The notes: generated by a model from the sequence alone, not told the origin. A stretch of 11,758 nt of DNA from a virus (IMGVR_UViG_2690316233_000014), one strand, 5' to 3'; positions 2,622 to 10,751 are shown, counted from the first letter of the stretch. Translations and numbers: made by a program.

Positions 2622-5462
2622 TCATATATCGCTGCGCGTTTTTTGGTCATTTACGGGATTCGTGAGTCCCGTTTCTGTCTGTTTTTTGTTTCCGCTGGTC
2701 AGGCCACCCCGCAGCAGGTCTGCTTTGCGGCTGGCGCGTTCAGTGGTTTCACTGATTCTCTGTGCGTGCTCTGCGTCGCGGATGGCGCGCAGCATGTCAG
2801 AAAGCACGGTAACGGGTGTTTTCATGGTGTTCTGGTCCTGCTGAAGTGTGGATGCCAGGCGTGCGGCGGCTTCAGGGTCTGATGCCCCCAGCTGTGCCAG
2901 ATAGCTGGCGACCGGGTTATGGCGGATCTCCGTGCTGCTTACGCCATGATTACGGCTCAGGCGCTGCCAGAGCTGCGTGATTCGGCTGTCCGGGCGGGTA
3001 TCCGGTTTGCGTACAATTTCAAATCCCTGCGGTGCAATGATGCTGCCGTCAACGTACAGACTGCCGCCCCGTAACAGGTGCTGCATCTGTTGTTCACCGA
3101 TATGCAGGCCGAGAGATTCAGCAGACTCCCGCCATTCTTTAGCGAGTAATTCGTGGTTATCAGGCAAAGGCCGCTGCTGTTTGCGGCTCTGTGTCCAGCT
3201 CTGCATTTCATCACTGCTGTTTTTTGCCTGTTTGTCACGAAGCGAATGCATCAGCGCCCGGCGTTCGTGCCGTTTCAGTGAGCGCATCCATTCGTTCACT
3301 TCAACGCCGTCAGGGAGCTGCGGCCACGGTGCTGGCCGTTCTTCCGGCTGTTCTGTCCCGTTGTTGTCCGTTTCCTGTACACGGGGACAGTTATTGCCAC
3401 GAGTCCAAGGGGCGGCAGGGCCGCCCTGAAGGTCAAAACCATTTTCGCGGGCACTGTCTTCCGCTTCCGGTTTGCGTCTTACCAGCTTCCAGTTATCCGG
3501 ATGCGTGCACACACGGGAGGATTCCCCGATGAGTGGTGACCAGATCCCGTAAATCTGTACGCTCTGTTCGCCGTAATCGTTCAGCTCATCGGCGAGGTCG
3601 TAGGCGGTGCGAATCAGGTAGTCCTTGCGTGGAACAAGTACGCCGCCCTGTTTCTCTATGTAGGTGGCAAAACATCCGGCATCAGCGGCGGCAAGAACCG
3701 CATCCATTGCGTCATCCTTCAGCCGTTGCGGGCCTTCCGGGTTGCGTGCCATCTGGCTGGCAAGGCGGCGCAGTTCACGCCATACCTGGCGGGAGGGGAT
3801 GCCAAAGAACTGGAACTGGCGGACCCGGTGAAGGCGCGCCCAGCCGATGGCGCGTTCCACGCTCTCGGCCATTGATTTTCCGGTTTCGTGGTCAACGCGT
3901 GGCTTGCCCGTTTTCGGGTCGATGCCATCCACGGCACGGCTGTCCAGGTTTTTCCCGATGTAGGTGGCGATGTAGCTGGTCGGTGTGCCTTTTGAGCCGT
4001 CGACGTACTCCGCCTTAAAGCGTGGGGTAATATCATCACCCAGCTCGTGACGATCTTCCTGAATGGCAATATCGCGGGTGTGGGACACAATAGTGTCGAT
4101 TTCTTCCGGATGAGCAAAGACCATCATATGCCAGTGCACGGTGCCGTCATGGTGAGGCTCCACCGTGCGGATGCCATACCAGCGCAGGCCGTCGCGGTTC
4201 AGTTTCTTGCGGACCGCCGCAAAAAACGTGTTAACCAGGTAATCGCTGGAGTCGCGCATGGTGGCCCCGTTCCATTTGGGATTCGGATGACCGTTCTCTG
4301 TTGTGGCGTGGTATTTTGACGGGCAGGTGACAGTCAGAAACACCGCTTTGTCGCCACGGGCTTCGGCCAGAAGTTCCAGCCCCTTCATGGTGGCCATCAT
4401 TTCTGCCTTACGGTGAACCGGGTTACTTACTCCCGCGTAATACACTGTCTCGAGATCAATCGTGAACCCATCTTCGTTTTCCAGCATGAAACTTTTCAGG
4501 AAATCGCGTGTTTTCTCGCGCTGTGCGCGAAACTCGCTTAATGCGTCCTGGCTCAGATAGGGCGATGTTTTTCTGGAAACCAGACAGGCGGCGCGGAGTT
4601 GTTCTTCTCTCCACTCGCAACGTAACAGCCACAGTTTGCGTTTCCACCATTCCGCACAGGTCAGGCGAAGGATTGCGCCCGGCAGCAGCTCCGTGTCCGG
4701 TTCGTTCCTCCGGTCTTTATCTGTTGTCAGTGCGTCATAATGTGGAGGCATGATGTGCAGGTGTAACGCCATGCGGGCCAGCATCTGATACGCCTTCAGC
4801 GTTACATCCATGGTCAGTTCGCCATCGGTCGCGCCAAAGCCATCGCAGAGTTTTTCGAAGGTGCTGCTGAACATCGCCGCCGTCATGGTGGCCAGCGTCT
4901 GTATCTGGTGTTTGTTGAGCTGCGGCAGGTAAAGCAAATCGTCCAGGCGTTCGCGTCCGGCAAGGGAGCGATAACCAGGTGTCAGCCAGCGCCCGTCAGT
5001 GCGATCCAGACGTTCGAATATTTTGCGCAGGGTTCCGCGTGTATAGCGTTCCGCCTGCCAGCTCTTTTTGCCTTTCTGACGATCGGCTTCCTGCTTCTTG
5101 CGCAGGAAAGAGAGGTGGCGGCTCAGAGGTTCTCGCAGATAAACGGGAAGCGCCTTCAGTGTGGCAAAGGCACGGGCTACCGGGTCTTGTTCTGTTGCCC
5201 GGCGCTTACTGATGATGCTCTGTGCCAGCTTTTCACGCTGTCCGGCTTCCTCAAGGGATGCCATGAGTTTTTTACCCATGGCGGATTGTGCGAAAAAGGC
5301 TTCTTCCTTCGCTTCCTGTTCTTCCTGTGCCCTTTTGTCCGCCTCAAGGTAGCAACGGATGGCGCGTTGCAGGTCGGTTTCAGTTTCCTGCCTGCGCTCC
5401 GTAAATCTGGCCGGATCAATAGCTGGTCGTGGTTCATTCCAGCTCCATGCAAACGCACTCAT
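2622..5462 (-). CDS. rolling-circle replication initiator, HUH endonuclease of the P2 gpA / phiX174 A type, about 946 aa
   Basis: HUH motif VHWHMMVF (codons near 4128-4136) and paired active-site tyrosines in SYIATYIGK (YxxxY, near 3960-3976). No Walker A motif, so not a P4 alpha primase-helicase. ATG at 5462-5460 forms an ATGA overlap with the upstream stop; the track start at 5489 is GTG. Confidence 0.85.
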   Translation of the reverse strand: MSAFAWSWNEPRPAIDPARFTERRQETETDLQRAIRCYLEADKRAQEEQEAKEEAFFAQSAMGKKLMASLEEAGQREKLAQSIISKRRATEQDPVARAFATLKALPVYLREPLSRHLSFLRKKQEADRQKGKKSWQAERYTRGTLRKIFERLDRTDGRWLTPGYRSLAGRERLDDLLYLPQLNKHQIQTLATMTAAMFSSTFEKLCDGFGATDGELTMDVTLKAYQMLARMALHLHIMPPHYDALTTDKDRRNEPDTELLPGAILRLTCAEWWKRKLWLLRCEWREEQLRAACLVSRKTSPYLSQDALSEFRAQREKTRDFLKSFMLENEDGFTIDLETVYYAGVSNPVHRKAEMMATMKGLELLAEARGDKAVFLTVTCPSKYHATTENGHPNPKWNGATMRDSSDYLVNTFFAAVRKKLNRDGLRWYGIRTVEPHHDGTVHWHMMVFAHPEEIDTIVSHTRDIAIQEDRHELGDDITPRFKAEYVDGSKGTPTSYIATYIGKNLDSRAVDGIDPKTGKPRVDHETGKSMAESVERAIGWARLHRVRQFQFFGIPSRQVWRELRRLASQMARNPEGPQRLKDDAMDAVLAAADAGCFATYIEKQGGVLVPRKDYLIRTAYDLADELNDYGEQSVQIYGIWSPLIGESSRVCTHPDNWKLVRRKPEAEDSARENGFDLQGGPAAPWTRGNNCPRVQETDNNGTEQPEERPAPWPQLPDGVEVNEWMRSLKRHERRALMHSLRDKQAKNSSDEMQSWTQSRKQQRPLPDNHELLAKEWRESAESLGLHIGEQQMQHLLRGGSLYVDGSIIAPQGFEIVRKPDTRPDSRITQLWQRLSRNHGVSSTEIRHNPVASYLAQLGASDPEAAARLASTLQQDQNTMKTPVTVLSDMLRAIRDAEHAQRISETTERASRKADLLRGGLTSGNKKQTETGLTNPVNDQKTRSDI
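2651..2688 (+). repeat. hairpin repeat copy 2: TTTACGGGATT-CGTG-AGTCCCGT followed by a T-rich tail
   Basis: About 35 of 42 positions identical to copy 1 and 73 bp away. Stem ACGGGATT/AGTCCCGT with one G-U pair. Lies inside the last ~20 codons of the Rep ORF. Confidence 0.5.
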
Positions 5463-5848
5463 GGCTGGTATCCCGTCACGCGCTGCCACTCCTGCGAGAA
5501 GAGGGCGGAAAGGCGGTTAAATTCAGCGGTGTATTCACTCAGCGAGGCACACCCGCCAGCAGTGCGATGCGCCAGCATTGCTGCAAATACGGAGGCCGGG
5601 GAGTCGTAATACGCCAGCAGTGATTCGCCGTGCGGTGTCAGGCAGTGTAACGCCAGTCCGTGTGGTGTGAAATCCACGCGGTAGCAGTCGTCTACTGTGA
5701 AATAAAGGGTGTCTGCATTCTCCGGTTTTGTGGTGCGTGCTCTGTTGTCACGACCACGGATGTAGAGATCAAATAACCCCTGAAGAACGGGAGCCAGACG
5801 GGTGTCCTGTGTGCGCACCCATCTTGTGAAGTCATGAGCGTCAATCAT
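5459..5848 (-). CDS. hypothetical protein, 129 aa, translationally coupled to Rep
   Basis: ATG at 5848-5846, TGA at 5459-5461 overlapping the Rep ATG. Family not recognised. Confidence 0.6.
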   Translation of the reverse strand: MIDAHDFTRWVRTQDTRLAPVLQGLFDLYIRGRDNRARTTKPENADTLYFTVDDCYRVDFTPHGLALHCLTPHGESLLAYYDSPASVFAAMLAHRTAGGCASLSEYTAEFNRLSALFSQEWQRVTGYQP

Positions 5849-5920
5849 GCTGCAATTCTCTTTACTACAGATGTGCGAAGGCCTCCCGCCGCAAGGTGCA
5901 GGAAAGGCCCGGAACAGGAA

Positions 5921-6151
5921 TTAATGGAGTTTGTTTTGCTGCTGGATGAGCTGTTGAAGCTCGTGCAGATCATCCGCCAGATAGCTGAAAACAGAGGCGG
6001 AATAAATGTTTGATAGTGCGTGGCTGCGCTCATGCAGCATATTGATGTGCATGATTTGCGCGACGCGTGATGCGCGGGAAAGTCTGCGGTTGATTTCAGT
6101 CTGGATGTGACGACGCTCCGCGATAGCGCGGTGCTGTTTGCGGTCTGCCAT
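5921..6151 (-). CDS. small basic helical protein, 76 aa
   Basis: ATG at 6151-6149 with AGAGG 8 nt upstream, TAA at 5921-5923. Translation MADRKQHRAIAERRHIQTEINRRLSR... is protein-like; preferred over the overlapping Ser/Arg-rich 205-aa track ORF. Confidence 0.55.
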   Translation of the reverse strand: MADRKQHRAIAERRHIQTEINRRLSRASRVAQIMHINMLHERSHALSNIYSASVFSYLADDLHELQQLIQQQNKLH

Positions 6152-6194
6152 GGTGTGGCCTCTTTGCTCGGTGATAGAAATAACTCACCATCCA

Positions 6195-6386
6195 GAGTTG
6201 AGAATCTCGGGGTGGCGAGACGTACAGGGTTCTCAACACCGGAGAGCAAAGAATCCGGCCCGACCGAAGTCGGCCCCGTACGCCCCGCCATAATTCTGAC
6301 GCGAAAAAGACGTGGCAATACAGTACGCACAAAAAAACCGCTTGCGCGGTTATGCGCTTTGCTCTGTATCGGGTTGAGAATCCCGG
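6195..6386 (-). ncRNA. candidate cis-regulatory or small-RNA leader with three related boxes
   Basis: On the + strand, box A GAGTTGAGAATCTCGG (6195-6210) and box C GGGTTGAGAATCCCGG (6371-6386) are 14/16 identical. Box B AGGGTTCTCAACACCGG (6226-6242) is complementary to both over 10-12 bp. A GGCCGAC-UUCG-GUCGGCC hairpin (6257-6276, - strand RNA) and a terminator lie between them. No ORF with a plausible RBS. Confidence 0.4.
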
Positions 6387-6455
6387 CACCCGTTTTATGA
6401 GGTGCAGCGGAAATGTAACCTGACCGATTGAGGCATGGCAAGCGGTTTTTTTGTG
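6328..6455. repeat. perfect 18-bp inverted repeat CACAAAAAAACCGCTTGC / GCAAGCGGTTTTTTTGTG flanking a 92-bp segment
   Basis: Left arm 6328-6345 and right arm 6438-6455 are exact reverse complements. The left arm is half of the - strand terminator; the right arm with CCGATTG...CAAGCGG plus a T7 run resembles a weaker + strand terminator. Confidence 0.55.
6330..6352 (-). terminator. intrinsic terminator or attenuator inside the leader
   Basis: On the - strand: AACCGC-GCAA-GCGGTT followed by seven U residues (GNRA-type tetraloop). Located upstream of the 76-aa, 129-aa and Rep genes. Confidence 0.45.
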
Positions 6456-6473
6456 TGTGCATGTTCTGGTTTC

Positions 6474-6773
6474 TTACTGGTTCAGAAAAAAATCAAAAAC
6501 GTTATCGATGCGTTGCAGCAGCTCTTGCTGCATTGCTTCCGGCGTTTCCGGTTCGCCAGGTGCCCCCAGCGTTGCGCAGAAATCAGCGATTTCATGATGG
6601 AGCGTCAGGCGAATGGCAGGAGCCGTGGTTCTGGCGTGCTCCAGCTCATTCAGCAGTGCCAGCACAGCAGACGGCGAGAGCATTGCGCGAAATGCCAGTA
6701 ATTTTTGAGGCGTTGCCATTCGTTGCAGGGCAAATGCCAGTTCGCGTAGCTTCTGGTGGTTGATGGTGCTCAT
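6474..6773 (-). CDS. hypothetical protein, 99 aa
   Basis: ATG at 6773-6771 in an ATGA overlap with the upstream stop; TAA at 6474-6476. Family not recognised. Confidence 0.6.
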   Translation of the reverse strand: MSTINHQKLRELAFALQRMATPQKLLAFRAMLSPSAVLALLNELEHARTTAPAIRLTLHHEIADFCATLGAPGEPETPEAMQQELLQRIDNVFDFFLNQ

Positions 6774-7036
6774 GCTCTGGCTTCCTTCAGTAGCTGGTTA
6801 AACATGTGAGTAAGTGGATTGCTACACCCGAACGGCATCGGGTTTACGTGGTAAGAAGCCTGGCCTCCTGTTTTGCGAGCGCGACCACCTGTGCTGCGGT
6901 TTGTTCTGATGACTAAGCCGCCGCGCCAAAGTCGGCGTAACTCAGCATTAATGGCTGTGGTTGGGGTGTTCAGTGCTGCGGCGATTTCTCCGCCGCTACA
7001 ACCCGGATGTGTAGTGATGTAGTCCAGAATGGTCAT
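6770..7036 (-). CDS. probable winged-helix DNA-binding protein, 88 aa
   Basis: ATGA overlaps at both ends. The segment SGGEIAAALNTPTTAINAELRRLWRGGLVIRT has a wHTH-like pattern; assignment is by pattern only. Confidence 0.55.
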   Translation of the reverse strand: MTILDYITTHPGCSGGEIAAALNTPTTAINAELRRLWRGGLVIRTNRSTGGRARKTGGQASYHVNPMPFGCSNPLTHMFNQLLKEARA

Positions 7037-7236
7037 TTGCGTGGCTCCTGTACCTGTCGGATAAGATTCACCCGCGCCACGTTGGTGGCGCAGAAGTAAG
7101 TGCCGTCAGTGAGGTAGATGTGGTGTGCATCCTTTTCCGAACGATGTTTGTCGATAGTGGTAATCAGGCGTTCGTCGACCTCGTATTCGCGCCCTCTGGA
7201 GGTAAAGCGAATGACGGGAAAATGCTTAATTGCCAT
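7033..7236 (-). CDS. hypothetical protein, 67 aa
   Basis: ATG at 7236-7234 with AAGGGGG upstream, TGA at 7033-7035 overlapping the next start. Confidence 0.55.
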   Translation of the reverse strand: MAIKHFPVIRFTSRGREYEVDERLITTIDKHRSEKDAHHIYLTDGTYFCATNVARVNLIRQVQEPRK

Positions 7237-7259
7237 TGCGCCCCCTTTGTCCAGTAACC

Positions 7260-7676
7260 CTATGCGTTAAATACGGCACGTTGCGCGTCATCAATGAATA
7301 CAGCTTGAGATCGTTCTATCAGGCGGAGATTTGTCAGAAGCTCTGACTCTTTTGTGTGGTAAGGCGTTATCAGGTATTTGCCGTGCAGTTCGGCAATAAT
7401 GGTGTATTGCGTCATTATTGCCGAACCAAGAATGTAAATGCGGCGTCCAATGCTGGACGGATTCATGGCTGCAACTGTTGACTGTGTTTTAAGAGTGTCG
7501 ATTTCTTTGCTCTGTTCCTCAATAATTTTGGCTGCTTCAGAGGGGGCTATTGCGATGGTCAGTGCGTAAAGCGCTGCCATATGTTGATTATCTTTCTGGG
7601 CTGCCCTGGACAGCTTGTCTTGCTCTGCTGACACTATTTTTAATGTATTGATAATATTTTTTTCTCTTGCGTTCAT
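7260..7676 (-). CDS. hypothetical protein, 138 aa
   Basis: ATG at 7676-7674 with GGAG 8 nt upstream, preceded by about 100 nt of non-coding sequence containing repeats. Confidence 0.6.
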   Translation of the reverse strand: MNAREKNIINTLKIVSAEQDKLSRAAQKDNQHMAALYALTIAIAPSEAAKIIEEQSKEIDTLKTQSTVAAMNPSSIGRRIYILGSAIMTQYTIIAELHGKYLITPYHTKESELLTNLRLIERSQAVFIDDAQRAVFNA

Positions 7677-7725
7677 TTTATATCTCCGTTATTTACGTGT
7701 GCGAATACCTCCGCGAATGCGGATA

Positions 7726-7754
7726 GTTTTCAGGTTTTCAGGTTTTCAGGTTTA
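7726..7754. repeat. tandem octamer GTTTTCAG, about 3.6 copies
   Basis: Copies at 7726-7733, 7734-7741 and 7742-7749 plus a partial copy. Sits in the gap between the 37-aa ORF stop and the 138-aa start; the palindrome TCCGCGAATGCGGA (7709-7722) is adjacent. Confidence 0.6.
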
Positions 7755-7776
7755 ATCTGGTGTTTTGTTTAAGCTG

Positions 7777-7890
7777 TTATTTGTCAGTGAAAAAGCGTTC
7801 AATCTTTTTTACTGAATGAATAATTCGCATAATCCCAATGGCGCAGGCCACCGAAATAATCAGAACAAGCCATGAGATAAATATACTCAT
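7777..7890 (-). CDS. small membrane peptide, 37 aa, absent from the ORF track
   Basis: ATG at 7890-7888 overlaps the TGA of the upstream 80-aa ORF (ATGA); TAA at 7777-7779. Hand translation MSIFISWLVLIISVACAIGIMRIIHSVKKIERFFTDK: one transmembrane helix and a basic C-tail. Confidence 0.5.
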   Translation of the reverse strand: MSIFISWLVLIISVACAIGIMRIIHSVKKIERFFTDK

Positions 7891-8129
7891 GCGATATTCC
7901 CCAGCTTATACGGTTCAATGTGTTCCCCGCATTCTGCGGCACAGATCAGCTCGGAAAGTTCGTTCAGTGCATCCAGATCATCAGCGTAAAAAGCAACGTC
8001 ATACAAACTCCGGATTGCCCTGGTCAATGAATCACGGGCTGCATGTTCAGCATGAGCGCCTGATGCACTTAAGCGAAAATAAAATCGTTCAAGTGCTTTG
8101 TTAATGAGAGTTTTATATTCTTTGCCCAT
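7887..8129 (-). CDS. hypothetical protein, 80 aa
   Basis: ATG at 8129-8127, TGA at 7887-7889; fits the - strand operon and is coupled to the downstream small ORF. Preferred over the antisense + strand ORF 7838..8104. Confidence 0.55.
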   Translation of the reverse strand: MGKEYKTLINKALERFYFRLSASGAHAEHAARDSLTRAIRSLYDVAFYADDLDALNELSELICAAECGEHIEPYKLGNIA

Positions 8130-8140
8130 CGCAACGCCCT

Positions 8141-8419
8141 TTAATCTGCTTTCTGAATTTCAGCTTCTGAATCCATACAAATAATTTCGATATAGGGTTC
8201 ATCGCCATTAACCTGACGTGCCTTTTCAGCTTCGCTAATGATTTCTCGTACGGTCTGGTACGGAAGCTCCACAGTCAGGCGCGTACCGTTCAGATAAACG
8301 TAAGTAGCTGCGTTTTTTTCGGATGGAACAACTCCGTCAATTGCTGATGCGCGTAATAACAGTTCACCGCGAAAATCAATAAAACGGATAAATACACCTT
8401 GTGCATGCTCTTTGGTCAT
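8141..8419 (-). CDS. hypothetical protein, 92 aa
   Basis: Internal ATG at 8419-8417 preferred: it lies 10 nt after the upstream stop with AGGTG in between, whereas the track start at 8479 is TTG and overlaps the upstream gene by 50 nt. Confidence 0.55.
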   Translation of the reverse strand: MTKEHAQGVFIRFIDFRGELLLRASAIDGVVPSEKNAATYVYLNGTRLTVELPYQTVREIISEAEKARQVNGDEPYIEIICMDSEAEIQKAD

Positions 8420-8429
8420 AAAGCACCTG

Positions 8430-8780
8430 TTATAAATCAGCCTGTTTAATAAAACTTTGCCCGCGAAGCAGACGATCAACCGTGCGAAGTGCTTCGTATA
8501 ATGTGAAATCCTGCCCGAAGTGATTGTCGCCGCAGTTCAATGCAAAAATGCGGTTTCCGGTAAATGGATTGCGTGGGCATTTGTGGACCACGATTCCAGC
8601 TTTCTCAATCAGCCAGGCATGCTCGCCGATTTGTTTTACAGCGTGGCCATCCGGTGTTGCGTGCGTCTCGTTCAGGTTATAGCGACTGTTACTACGTGAT
8701 GCACTGGTAGCGACGTGGTGTACATGGCGTTCTACGCCATTACGAAATTTGGAGTATGGATTATTAGCGTTTTTTTTCAT
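8430..8780 (-). CDS. hypothetical protein, 116 aa
   Basis: ATG at 8780-8778, TAA at 8430-8432. Verified codon by codon against the track translation. Family not recognised. Confidence 0.6.
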   Translation of the reverse strand: MKKNANNPYSKFRNGVERHVHHVATSASRSNSRYNLNETHATPDGHAVKQIGEHAWLIEKAGIVVHKCPRNPFTGNRIFALNCGDNHFGQDFTLYEALRTVDRLLRGQSFIKQADL

Positions 8781-8801
8781 GATGGTGCTCTGTTCATTGT
8801 T

Positions 8802-9005
8802 TTAGCTGTTAGCCAAAGCGTCTTTTAACATCGCCACAAGGTTTACTTCAGGCTTTTCCATTTTGGCGCGTTTGGGGCGGATAATAATTCGACCGTCAGC
8901 CAACATCTTTTTGCATGTATTAAGAGGGATACCTGTTATCTCTGCATATTTCTGCAGGGATACATAGGGGGCATTCACATTGATATTGATGGTTATACCT
9001 GACAT
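8802..9005 (-). CDS. Cox/Apl-like small HTH protein (candidate excisionase / lytic-side regulator), 67 aa
   Basis: Strong AGGAGG 8 nt upstream of the ATG at 9005-9003. The segment PYVSLQKYAEITGIPLNTCKKMLADGRI follows the pattern of P2 Cox (IPYQEFAKLIGKSTGAVRRMIDKGKLPVI, as I recall it), and its position in the operon divergent from the repressor agrees. Confidence 0.6.
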   Translation of the reverse strand: MSGITININVNAPYVSLQKYAEITGIPLNTCKKMLADGRIIIRPKRAKMEKPEVNLVAMLKDALANS

Positions 9006-9021: not shown

Positions 9022-9228
9022 TCAGGAAGATTTGTTTTGTTCTTTCTGGGTTAGCTCTAGGCCGCGAAGGAAGATCATGCGCGCCATGTTAGAGGATGAG
9101 CGTTGTTCTTTAGCTGCCATTTCATCAATGACGGCTCGCTCCTCGAGGGACAGCCGAAGTGCCAGTCTTGGACCTGTGGCGGTGTTACGCGGAATGCGTG
9201 ATCTGGTATCGTGAAGAACTTGTTTCAT
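9022..9228 (-). CDS. ribbon-helix-helix (Arc/CopG-type) DNA-binding protein, 68 aa
   Basis: RLALRLSLEERAVIDEMAAKEQRSSSNMARMIFLRGLE fits the beta-strand, helix, helix RHH pattern. It is the first gene of the leftward operon; no Shine-Dalgarno before the ATG at 9228, so the mRNA may be leaderless. Confidence 0.6.
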   Translation of the reverse strand: MKQVLHDTRSRIPRNTATGPRLALRLSLEERAVIDEMAAKEQRSSSNMARMIFLRGLELTQKEQNKSS

Positions 9229-9303
9229 AGTGGTATATTGTGATCATCTAATAGCTCGTGAAATCATTTTGGTATCAAAAAAGATACCTGTCAAGGTTTT
9301 TGT
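9229..9303. promoter_or_regulatory. divergent promoter and operator region between the RHH operon and the XRE repressor
   Basis: 75-bp AT-rich gap with an inverted repeat GGTATC-AAAAAA-GATACC (9271-9288), a further TGGTAT half-site at 9231-9236 and a TGATCA palindrome at 9241-9246. Candidate -35/-10 hexamers on both strands are not resolved. Confidence 0.5.
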
Positions 9304-9708
9304 ATGAAAAATGATATTGGTCAGCGGTTGCGTGAGGAAAGGGAAAGATTGGGACTTAGTCAAGTTGCCATGAGCGACATTGGTGGAGTCAAAAAGCTAA
9401 CTCAGCTTAGATATGAGAAAGGAGATAGCTTTCCTGATGCTGCGTATTTGGCAGCGCTGTCTCGTTTTGGCCTTGATGTTCAGTATGTTGTGTTGGGAAT
9501 TCACTCACCTGAAACTTATAACGATGATGAGCAGGAGTTGATTACTCGCTTTCGAGCAGCTTCGTTAGATGTGAAAAACGCGGTGATTGGGGCTTTAAAA
9601 GGTGCGATCAGTGAAAAGGAAACTCAGCCATCAGGACGTGAGTTAAATATTTCTGGTGGTAATAACCGTATCGCTGGTCGTGACTATAACGAAACTAAGG
9701 GTAGGTGA
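9304..9708 (+). CDS. XRE-family HTH repressor (CI/C-like), 134 aa
   Basis: ATG at 9304 with AAGG upstream. N-terminus IGQRLREERERLGLSQVAMSDIGGV is a classic Cro/CI-type HTH. Ends with three tandem in-frame stops TGA TAG TAG (9706-9714). Confidence 0.8.
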   Translation: MKNDIGQRLREERERLGLSQVAMSDIGGVKKLTQLRYEKGDSFPDAAYLAALSRFGLDVQYVVLGIHSPETYNDDEQELITRFRAASLDVKNAVIGALKGAISEKETQPSGRELNISGGNNRIAGRDYNETKGR

Positions 9709-9723: not shown

Positions 9724-10374
9724 ATGGCCGTCAACTCAAACGGTTCAAACAATCGCGTTGCTGGGCGTGATTTTCACGAAAAGAATATTCAGATAGAGCG
9801 ATATGATGGTTCTCATACCGTCAATATCGCAATCCCTTCGAATAATGATGATGACGATCGCCCTTTGCTTAAGGCTCAGCGTAAGGAGCTAAATAGCTTG
9901 GTTGCTGCTATTGCAGAAGCTAGCAATACTGAAGCGTTTATTATTTGGCAAAAAGTACATGCGGAGATTGGTGTAGCTGGTATTGATGATATGACAGTAA
10001 ATCAATATAAAACAGCGGAGAGTTTTCTGCATGCAATGCTTGAGCGATGTAAAGATCATGATGCCTGTAAGGCTCTTGTAAGTTTATTACTACGTAACAG
10101 TGAAGACTGTGGACTTCGACAAAAACTTCTGCGGTATTGCCATATCAATTTCGGTACAGGACGTTTAAACGATCTTACTCGTTCTCAGTTACAGTCTGCA
10201 TTGTCGTGGTTAGAGCAACAATCGGCATCAAGCCACACAGAGAGTTCGACCTTACCAGAAGTCCGACTTCGTGCTTCAGAATTAATCCGACTTTATCCAA
10301 AAGAAATAATATTCTTTATCTGCGTAGGGGTTTTGGTAGGCGGTGTCATTTCTAGGGCGTTTTTTAATTTGTAA
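9724..10374 (+). CDS. tail-anchored membrane protein of unknown function, 216 aa
   Basis: Strong GGGAGGTGA Shine-Dalgarno before the ATG at 9724. C-terminal hydrophobic stretch EIIFFICVGVLVGGVISRAFF. The N-terminal motif SNNRVAGRDFHE echoes GNNRIAGRDYNE at the repressor C-terminus. AT-rich. Confidence 0.65.
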   Translation: MAVNSNGSNNRVAGRDFHEKNIQIERYDGSHTVNIAIPSNNDDDDRPLLKAQRKELNSLVAAIAEASNTEAFIIWQKVHAEIGVAGIDDMTVNQYKTAESFLHAMLERCKDHDACKALVSLLLRNSEDCGLRQKLLRYCHINFGTGRLNDLTRSQLQSALSWLEQQSASSHTESSTLPEVRLRASELIRLYPKEIIFFICVGVLVGGVISRAFFNL

Positions 10375-10403: not shown

Positions 10404-10751
10404 ATGAAAGTAAAAAATGTTCAACTATTAGTTACTTTTTTATCTATGTTTTCTTTTTCCGCCGTCGCAATGCCTTTTAAAACTATTGAACGTGAGAGTT
10501 TTAATGGGGTATGGCCATTTAATACTGATGAGGTTCAATTACAGTGTCTTGATGGTAATCCTTATGTGATGAATTTTGACGATAATAAGTTATATGCACT
10601 TACAGGTTTGGCTCGAATAAAAGGTAAAACATTTGGTGCGTTACCGTTAGATAACAATAATCCATTTTGGCTAGATAATGATGCCGCCCCAGGGTTAAAA
10701 AAGAGTCTGGGGGATGTCACTAAGGCTGCATTTGATTTATGTGATAAGTAA
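10404..10751 (+). CDS. secreted or periplasmic protein with an N-terminal signal peptide, 115 aa
   Basis: GAGGT 7 nt before the ATG at 10404. MKVKNVQLLVTFLSMFSFSAVA looks like a Sec signal peptide; the mature part has two Cys residues. AT-rich. Confidence 0.65.
   Translation: MKVKNVQLLVTFLSMFSFSAVAMPFKTIERESFNGVWPFNTDEVQLQCLDGNPYVMNFDDNKLYALTGLARIKGKTFGALPLDNNNPFWLDNDAAPGLKKSLGDVTKAAFDLCDK

Follow-up and report, generated by a model that had tools for sequence, protein, structure and literature searches.

The window examined here, an 11,758-nucleotide (nt) stretch of viral DNA (IMGVR_UViG_2690316233_000014), comes from an Escherichia coli prophage of the P88-like type (Xuanwuvirus, Peduoviridae), of which it is the early region. 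Five small open reading frames (ORFs) follow its Cox-like gene at positions 7260-8780, and they are genuine protein-coding genes. Four of them (orf116, orf92, orf80 and orf37) form a conserved block under purifying selection, and the fifth, orf138, is exchangeable cargo and the only variable gene of the five. Tentatively, and with rather less than an even chance of being right, the five products can be read as small, host-directed binders that act early in lytic growth, the block being a lineage-specific take-over module and orf138 an arms-race factor. The genes are already catalogued and their families are known, without an assigned function. What is added here is the split between core and cargo, the company that DUF4761 keeps with Fil and Dhr and with DUF4754 across genera, and the slot that orf138 occupies. 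The five genes and this slot are arranged as follows.

8430-8780, minus strand: orf116, a DUF4761 protein of 116 amino acids (aa) (Pfam PF15958, phrog_2492).
8141-8419, minus strand: orf92, a phrog_3800 protein of 92 aa counted from its ATG (PHROG E-value 7.5e-59).
7887-8129, minus strand: orf80, a DUF4754 protein of 80 aa (PF15946, E-value 8.7e-54; phrog_2549).
7777-7890, minus strand: orf37, a predicted single-pass membrane peptide of 37 aa, its start overlapping the orf80 stop (ATGA).
7260-7676, minus strand: orf138, a phrog_9338 protein of 138 aa (PHROG E-value 2.5e-76).
7237-7776, minus strand: the variable cargo slot, between orf37 and a conserved 67-aa gene.

All five ORFs lie on the minus strand, and 1400 of the 1521 nt between 7260 and 8780 (92%) are coding. 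The ratio of nonsynonymous to synonymous substitution rates (dN/dS), computed pairwise over 14-42 distinct alleles per ORF from related loci, is 0.22 for orf116, 0.22 for orf92, 0.07 for orf80, 0.23 for orf37 and 0.70 for orf138. Four ORFs match Pfam or PHROG families over their full length with E-values from 1e-38 to 1e-76, and the RefSeq PGAP annotation of an O157:H7 genome calls all five as coding sequences (CDS). These coding patterns, family matches and CDS calls show that the ORFs are real genes. An earlier interpretation of the same DNA, made without database searches and called here the sequence-only reading, had listed products of 116, 92, 80, 37 and 138 aa, and all were found at these sizes. 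The tight packing that it described holds as well: gaps of 21, 10 and 11 nt separate the first genes from the Cox-like gene and from one another, orf80 and orf37 overlap by 4 nt, and 100 nt precede and 23 nt follow orf138. That none of the products could be recognised remains correct as far as function goes, but they are not new, as two are Pfam DUFs and four are PHROGs labelled 'unknown function'. Similarly, the run does have the described flanks, a Cox-like gene and a replication module, but five further genes and two small RNAs intervene between orf138 and the replication gene.

Each of the four block genes is present in at least 81 of 85 tabulated loci. The block is kept with three different immunity regions upstream and is always found with the same long GPA-type replication protein (940-955 aa). 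Since they are conserved and under purifying selection, the four genes are unlike variable counter-defence cargo. P88 (NC_026014, gp04-gp07), other Xuanwuvirus genomes and the O157:H7 yecA prophage carry these genes in unchanged order, with protein identities of 78-100% and under identical labels: DUF4761, hypothetical, DUF4754 and membrane protein. In P88 and in phage 520873 the cargo slot is empty and orf138 is absent. The immunity region of the window, shared with phage 520873, combines an Arc-like gene, a short Cox-like gene and a 134-aa repressor, whereas that of P88 consists of a P2-type C and a long Cox.

The first gene of the block, orf116, matches PF15958 with 214.6 bits (gathering cut-off 27) over profile positions 1-105 of 105, and PHROG 2492 with an E-value of 4.1e-44. 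Its product is basic (isoelectric point, pI, 9.7), with 35-40 disordered N-terminal residues and a core of about 65 aa that AlphaFold2 models as five beta-strands and a C-terminal helix; the invariant residues of this core gather on the last strand and the helix. Zinc binding was considered and rejected, as the two cysteines are not conserved. DUF4761 comprises 144 clusters from Enterobacteriaceae; of 185,579 species-representative genomes, only 3 have it. Short members of the family, 68-76 aa long and reduced to the core, are found in Senquatrovirus SEN5, Novemvirus phiT5282H, Reipivirus ST16-OXA48phi5.4 and two plasmid-borne P2/186-like elements, always one or two genes past cox. The DUF4761 genes of SEN5 and phiT5282H each overlap a true Fil gene (Pfam Phage_186_Fil, E-value 4e-18), after which comes a Dhr homologue (33% identity, E-value 2e-7). 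DUF4761 thus belongs to the early segment in which phage 186 has its known host take-over genes.

A second association involves orf80, which matches PF15946 with 180.2 bits (gathering cut-off 27) over profile positions 1-80 of 80, and PHROG 2549 with an E-value of 4.9e-38. The protein is acidic (pI 5.2) and shows the highest conservation of the five; its family, DUF4754, comprises 59 clusters. In the Klebsiella Reipivirus ST16-OXA48phi5.4, gp06 adjoins DUF4761, and its N-terminal 80 aa fall into the PHROG of orf80 (E-value 5.2e-31; hhalign 78%). DUF4761 and DUF4754 thus travel together in two genera. Between them in the window stands orf92, likewise acidic (pI 4.7), for which the ORF listing also gives an alternative 112-aa, TTG-extended form. 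It has 20 relatives at E-values of 1e-3 or lower among 1.84 billion representative proteins, and Pfam and PDB searches with it gave no match. One distant relative (P0266) is a 207-aa fusion that has neither a Pfam domain nor an IMG/VR locus, and another candidate, a 485-aa repeat protein (P0273), looks spurious. A Klebsiella phage gp07 (BLASTP E-value 0.045) was rejected as a homologue at hhalign 0.4%. A possible likeness of orf92 to the flagellar protein FlbD, for which Pfam gave no match, is a lead and not a result. The last block gene, orf37, encodes a peptide whose residues 1-21 are hydrophobic (means of 19-residue Kyte-Doolittle windows 2.2-2.7) and whose C-terminal tail is basic; P88 and RefSeq records label it a CDS or membrane protein, and it has no PHROG and no Pfam or NCBIfam family match. 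The families of orf116, orf92, orf80 and orf138 are all very narrow.

The fifth gene is the variable one. The slot in which orf138 sits is empty (88-100 base pairs, bp) in 38 of 83 related loci (46%), holds orf138-family alleles in about 40 and an unrelated 105-aa gene (phrog_21900) in 5. Two of the slot alleles (loci L046 and L007) are 122 aa long with another C-terminus, and L007 has a second slot gene besides; a Salmonella locus outside the 83 (L086) carries two genes in the slot. The second gene of L007 and the one at 7497-7850 of L086 encode proteins of 109-117 aa that belong to phrog_16975 and weakly match a 'moron/membrane protein' PHROG; this extra gene comes after the orf138-family gene. 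The orf138 family itself comprises 75 clusters, essentially from Escherichia only. Among its 138-codon alleles dN/dS is 0.57-1.7 at residues 1-100 and 0.16 at residues 101-138, and most of the variation in the family alignment falls in residues 14-45. AlphaFold2 places helices at residues 3-28 and 32-64, forming an N-terminal hairpin with a predicted local distance difference test score (pLDDT) of about 90, and scores the remainder below 56; the model has no fold match.

P2 old/tin and Z/fun are variable accessory (moron) loci of temperate phage. The slot resembles them as a fixed point between conserved genes that holds none, one or two unrelated small genes. Unlike them, it lies inside the early lytic operon and not in a lysogenically expressed region; in further contrast, its cargo has no defence-system match and is dominated by one diversifying family instead of many unrelated systems. 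Of all places in the region, the orf138 slot is the best one in which to seek a counter-defence gene.

From these features a mechanism can be proposed. The ORFs belong to the early lytic operon and follow its Arc-like and Cox-like genes, all in one orientation. The likeliest way for their products to work is by binding to other macromolecules shortly after induction or infection. They are taken as binders and not as enzymes because they are too small and lack catalytic signatures; a strongly basic or acidic charge, the lack of a match to any enzyme family and, in orf116, a 65-aa core of beta-sheet and helix with clustered invariant residues are binder-like traits. The conserved block may then serve as a host take-over module, doing for this lineage what Fil (division block) and Dhr (replication block) do for 186. 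Within it, DUF4761 and DUF4754 would act as partners. The 37-aa peptide could be the membrane-acting component, co-produced with DUF4754 and seated in the inner membrane. For its part, orf138 would be an accessory factor in the arms race, and it is the one plausible anti-defence or exclusion candidate of the run.

The early genes of 186 (cII, fil, dhr) and P2 (orf78, B, orf80-83) offer the natural comparison. They are alike in position, with Cox or Apl upstream and a GPA-type replication gene downstream, and in forming a packed run of small ORFs on an early lytic transcript. They differ at the level of the proteins, to which the five ORFs have no sequence or profile similarity. BLASTP of the five against a 19-sequence database gave no homology to 186 CII, Fil, Dhr and CP79-84 or to P2 Orf78, B and Orf80-83. 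None matched Phage_186_Fil in Pfam at E-values up to 0.1, and the best BLASTP value against Fil was no better than 4.5; the Pfam model itself is sound, matching SEN5 gp39 at 4e-18. DUF4761 as a Fil paralogue, a resemblance seen by eye in an H-x-W-[IL]...G...H-x-C pattern, was rejected at hhalign 4%. Likewise, a relationship of orf80 to P2 B (BLASTP E-value 0.004, B residues 115-155) was rejected at hhalign 1.1% over 17 columns; every P2 B homologue from IMG/VR and GenBank phages has 85% identity or more, so that no diverse profile is possible. When orf116 was compared with 186 CII, a helix-turn-helix (HTH) activator of about 169 aa, neither BLASTP similarity nor an HTH family was found. The sequence-only reading had assigned the run to the place where P2/186-type phages carry host take-over functions. 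As a statement about location this is borne out, since the ORFs occupy an early operon after a Cox-like gene and DUF4761 precedes Fil and Dhr in two genera, but it does not extend to homology with those proteins. With no homology in BLASTP and hhalign at 1.1% for B and 4% for Fil, the genes do not reduce to the conserved P2/186 early proteins. The synteny comparison suggested in that reading did separate a variable ORF, orf138, from four conserved ones.

Several considerations weigh against the take-over interpretation. The proposed function is deduced from sequence and genomic context, and no homology or fold match was found between any of the five and a characterised host take-over, anti-defence or regulatory protein. 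To argue from the fil and dhr neighbours seen in other genera is guilt by association, and the argument covers only DUF4761. Conservation of the block suits a phage-internal role, in replication or regulation, equally well. The dN/dS of orf138 is below 1 overall, and its mosaic N-terminus could have arisen by recombination under relaxed constraint and not by positive selection. Lastly, the AlphaFold2 models were built from shallow alignments, have mean pLDDT values of 69.5 and 63.9, and leave the orf138 C-terminus unmodelled.

Other explanations were rated separately, and the ratings are not mutually exclusive. A phage-internal role, unlikely though of real weight, would have the block serve replication or the lysis-lysogeny decision, either as a substitute for P2 B (helicase loading) or as a CII/CIII-type modulator. 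The strict conservation of the block under purifying selection, most marked in orf80 (dN/dS 0.07), fits such a role, as does its constant company with the long GPA-type replication protein of 940-955 aa. A P2 B homologue is absent from P88-like phages, B being limited to close P2 relatives; in 186-like layouts DUF4761 stands where cII would, between apl/cox and fil; and the basic charge of orf116 and its disordered basic tail would allow nucleic-acid binding. However, DUF4754 compares with P2 B at hhalign 1.1%, and no HTH or other DNA-binding family was found. Moreover, DUF4761 is kept across three unrelated P88-like immunity regions, which argues against a regulator that needs an immunity-specific promoter.

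Early anti-defence activity, in which some or all five products inhibit restriction, abortive infection, systems of the cyclic oligonucleotide-based antiphage signalling (CBASS) type or the like early in infection, is doubtful. The sequence-only reading had seen the run as a plausible hiding place for anti-defence or host-manipulation genes, a view that finds no backing in PADLOC, NCBIfam, PDB or fold matches and, as regards variability, narrows to orf138. Searches of the five ORFs for function in NCBIfam, PADLOC-DB, PDB sequences and folds returned no meaningful match, and PDB profile searches with the family alignments returned none. In PADLOC-DB, at E-values up to 0.1, four of the five ORFs had no match, and orf80 had a single weak one (E-value 0.01, 11.7 bits), at the end of a type IIG enzyme profile that is 959 positions long. 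In the literature the families and their RefSeq accessions go unmentioned, and no functional data on these genes were found. A more specific proposal, itself judged unlikely, sets the cargo and the block apart. The orf138 alleles, 138/136 aa long or 122 aa long with a swapped C-terminal domain, would be an unrecognised family for early counter-defence or inter-phage competition, whose hairpin tracks a variable target in the host or a rival, and the DUF4761-DUF4754 pair would be a separate, new Peduoviridae take-over module that stands beside Fil and Dhr or replaces them.

It is improbable that orf37, alone or with the translationally coupled orf80, acts on the membrane as a toxin or in superinfection exclusion, depolarising the inner membrane or blocking DNA entry, with the rest of the run unrelated. 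The hydrophobic helix and basic C-terminal tail, almost invariant across 29 variants, and the ATGA overlap with orf80 are what make this worth considering, as is a diverged 50-aa membrane-type ORF in the same place in the Salmonella relative (L086). Against it, the peptide matches no toxin family, Rfam finds no antitoxin RNA in or near the gene, and a position in a lytic operon, probably silent in the lysogen, is ill-suited to classical prophage exclusion. Type I toxin-antitoxin systems combine a toxic small hydrophobic peptide, which orf37 would resemble in size and hydrophobicity, with an antisense RNA; translational coupling within a long operon is atypical of that family. That some of the ORFs, chiefly the very short and family-less orf37, are chance reading frames can be dismissed almost outright, given a dN/dS of 0.23 over 35 distinct alleles from 80 loci, a frame intact in all of them and CDS calls by several pipelines.

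If the block is a take-over module, or orf138 a counter-defence gene, these families would bring in new small proteins that inhibit immune systems or core E. coli processes. Such a role would go some way towards explaining how defective P2-family prophages such as Sp13 still excise and replicate (PMC2669165). The present gain is one of context: core genes are told apart from cargo, and families that occur together are recognised. The proteins are among the commoner ones of unassigned function in E. coli, as DNA similar to the region occurs in about a quarter of complete genomes (1381 of 5426), O157:H7 among them, where the copy of the element adjoins yecA. Xuanwuvirus phages and E. coli prophages cover 81-100% of the region at 90-99.5% identity. 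Sp13, the sole P2-like prophage of O157 Sakai, has an epsilon-like gene and is induced by mitomycin C, upon which its early-region transcripts go up (PMC2669165). Because of its P2-like type and epsilon-like gene, Sp13 (also CP-933T) is probably the O157:H7 element matched here, which is 98.3% identical.

The remaining features of the region, from the repressor to the replication gene, are these.

9304-9708, plus strand: repressor gene (134 aa), followed on the same strand by two further genes and the integrase.
9266-9294, minus strand: sigma-70-like promoter (TTGACA, 17 nt, CAAAAT) with 10 of 12 consensus matches, the best in the region; putative early promoter.
9022-9228, minus strand: Arc-like ribbon-helix-helix gene, 68 aa, opening the early operon (phrog_3431 Arc-like repressor, E-value 9.8e-29).
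8802-9005, minus strand: Cox-like excisionase/repressor, 67 aa (phrog_575, E-value 1.2e-27).
7710-7723, minus strand: 5-bp stem-loop TCCGCATTCGCGGA between orf37 and the slot, kept whether the slot is full or empty.
7033-7236, minus strand: conserved 67-aa gene (orf67), followed by a MarR-like and an Ead-like gene.
5921-6151, minus strand: P4-epsilon-like 'derepression protein' gene (Pfam Derepression, E-value 7.5e-8), followed by a 129-aa gene.
2622-5489, minus strand: GPA-type replication gene, 955 aa (Phage_GPA), with ParM-type partition genes beyond.

The promoter-like site at 9266-9294 lies directly upstream of the Arc-like gene; such sites are consensus matches only, and their number in the region is not above chance. 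The Cox-like gene has a weak BLASTP match to 186 Apl, and a close homologue stands at the head of an early operon in plasmid pENTAS02. Downstream of the slot the order is the 67-aa gene, the MarR-like and Ead-like genes, isrK-like and C4-like RNAs, the epsilon-like gene and the 129-aa gene. The Cox-like gene and the five ORFs (7260-9005) have a G+C content (GC) of 0.35-0.47 and a third-position content (GC3) of 0.33-0.47, the GC3 of the five ORFs alone being 0.33-0.46. From orf67 through the replication gene (2622-7236) GC is 0.52-0.57, and GC3 is 0.53-0.62 where computed. This break in composition, at about 7250, suggests that the first early segment is of differing evolutionary origin.

The stem-loop TCCGCATTCGCGGA takes the place of 186 tR1 and of the putative terminator after P2 B. 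The boundary terminator of 186 is mapped and that of P2 putative; here the corresponding element is a 5-bp stem-loop and, because it has no U-tract, is not a classical terminator. It is kept in all related loci, across which 98.9% of its cells are paired; 5 distinct sequences have a compensatory CG-to-UA change at one pair, and pairing of two wobble variants is limited to the early-mRNA strand. Past this short stem-loop, nothing notable emerged when 7660-7790 was assessed as a structured RNA (z-score -0.98). Directly upstream of the stem-loop, at 7727-7750 on the minus strand, are three tandem copies of CCTGAAAA; close relatives have two copies, or a diverged AAGAAAAYGTRAAAAC instead. On the plus strand a promoter-like site (CTGACA, 16 nt, GATAAT) lies at 7628-7657, within the first codons of orf138, and faces the stem-loop and then a T-rich run (7710-7735). 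Together they could yield an RNA of about 60-70 nt against the orf138 ribosome-binding site. Both the antisense promoter-like site and the stem-loop with its T-rich run are consensus matches at chance frequency, and the wobble variants speak against pairing on the plus strand.

Two further RNAs stand in tandem directly upstream of the epsilon-like gene, a C4 antisense RNA at 6208-6295 (minus strand; Rfam 78.5 bits, E-value 2e-14) and an isrK Hfq-binding RNA at 6331-6405 (minus strand; 63.1 bits, E-value 7e-12). Together with that gene they look like P1 ImmI-style antisense control of an antirepressor within a P2-family prophage, and this antisense set could be relevant to the unexplained induction of Sp13 by mitomycin C (PMC2669165).

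Downstream of the replication gene, 1270-2545 on the minus strand encodes ParM (319 aa) and a Plasmid_stab_B partner. A 34.5-kilobase (kb) circular E. coli 'plasmid' (L175, NZ_CP148288.1) is a whole P88-like genome with the same genes, and in pENTAS02, a 32.5-kb plasmid of Enterobacter soli, the early region and the replication gene are 186-like. The ParM genes and these two replicons suggest that some such phages persist as plasmids. In the interval between repressor and integrase, on the lysogenic strand, two genes are candidates for lysogenic conversion: one at 9724-10374 (plus strand) for a 216-aa protein that has a hydrophobic segment at its C-terminal end and falls into no confident family, and one at 10404-10751 (plus strand) for a 115-aa DUF2511 protein with a signal-peptide-like N-terminus.

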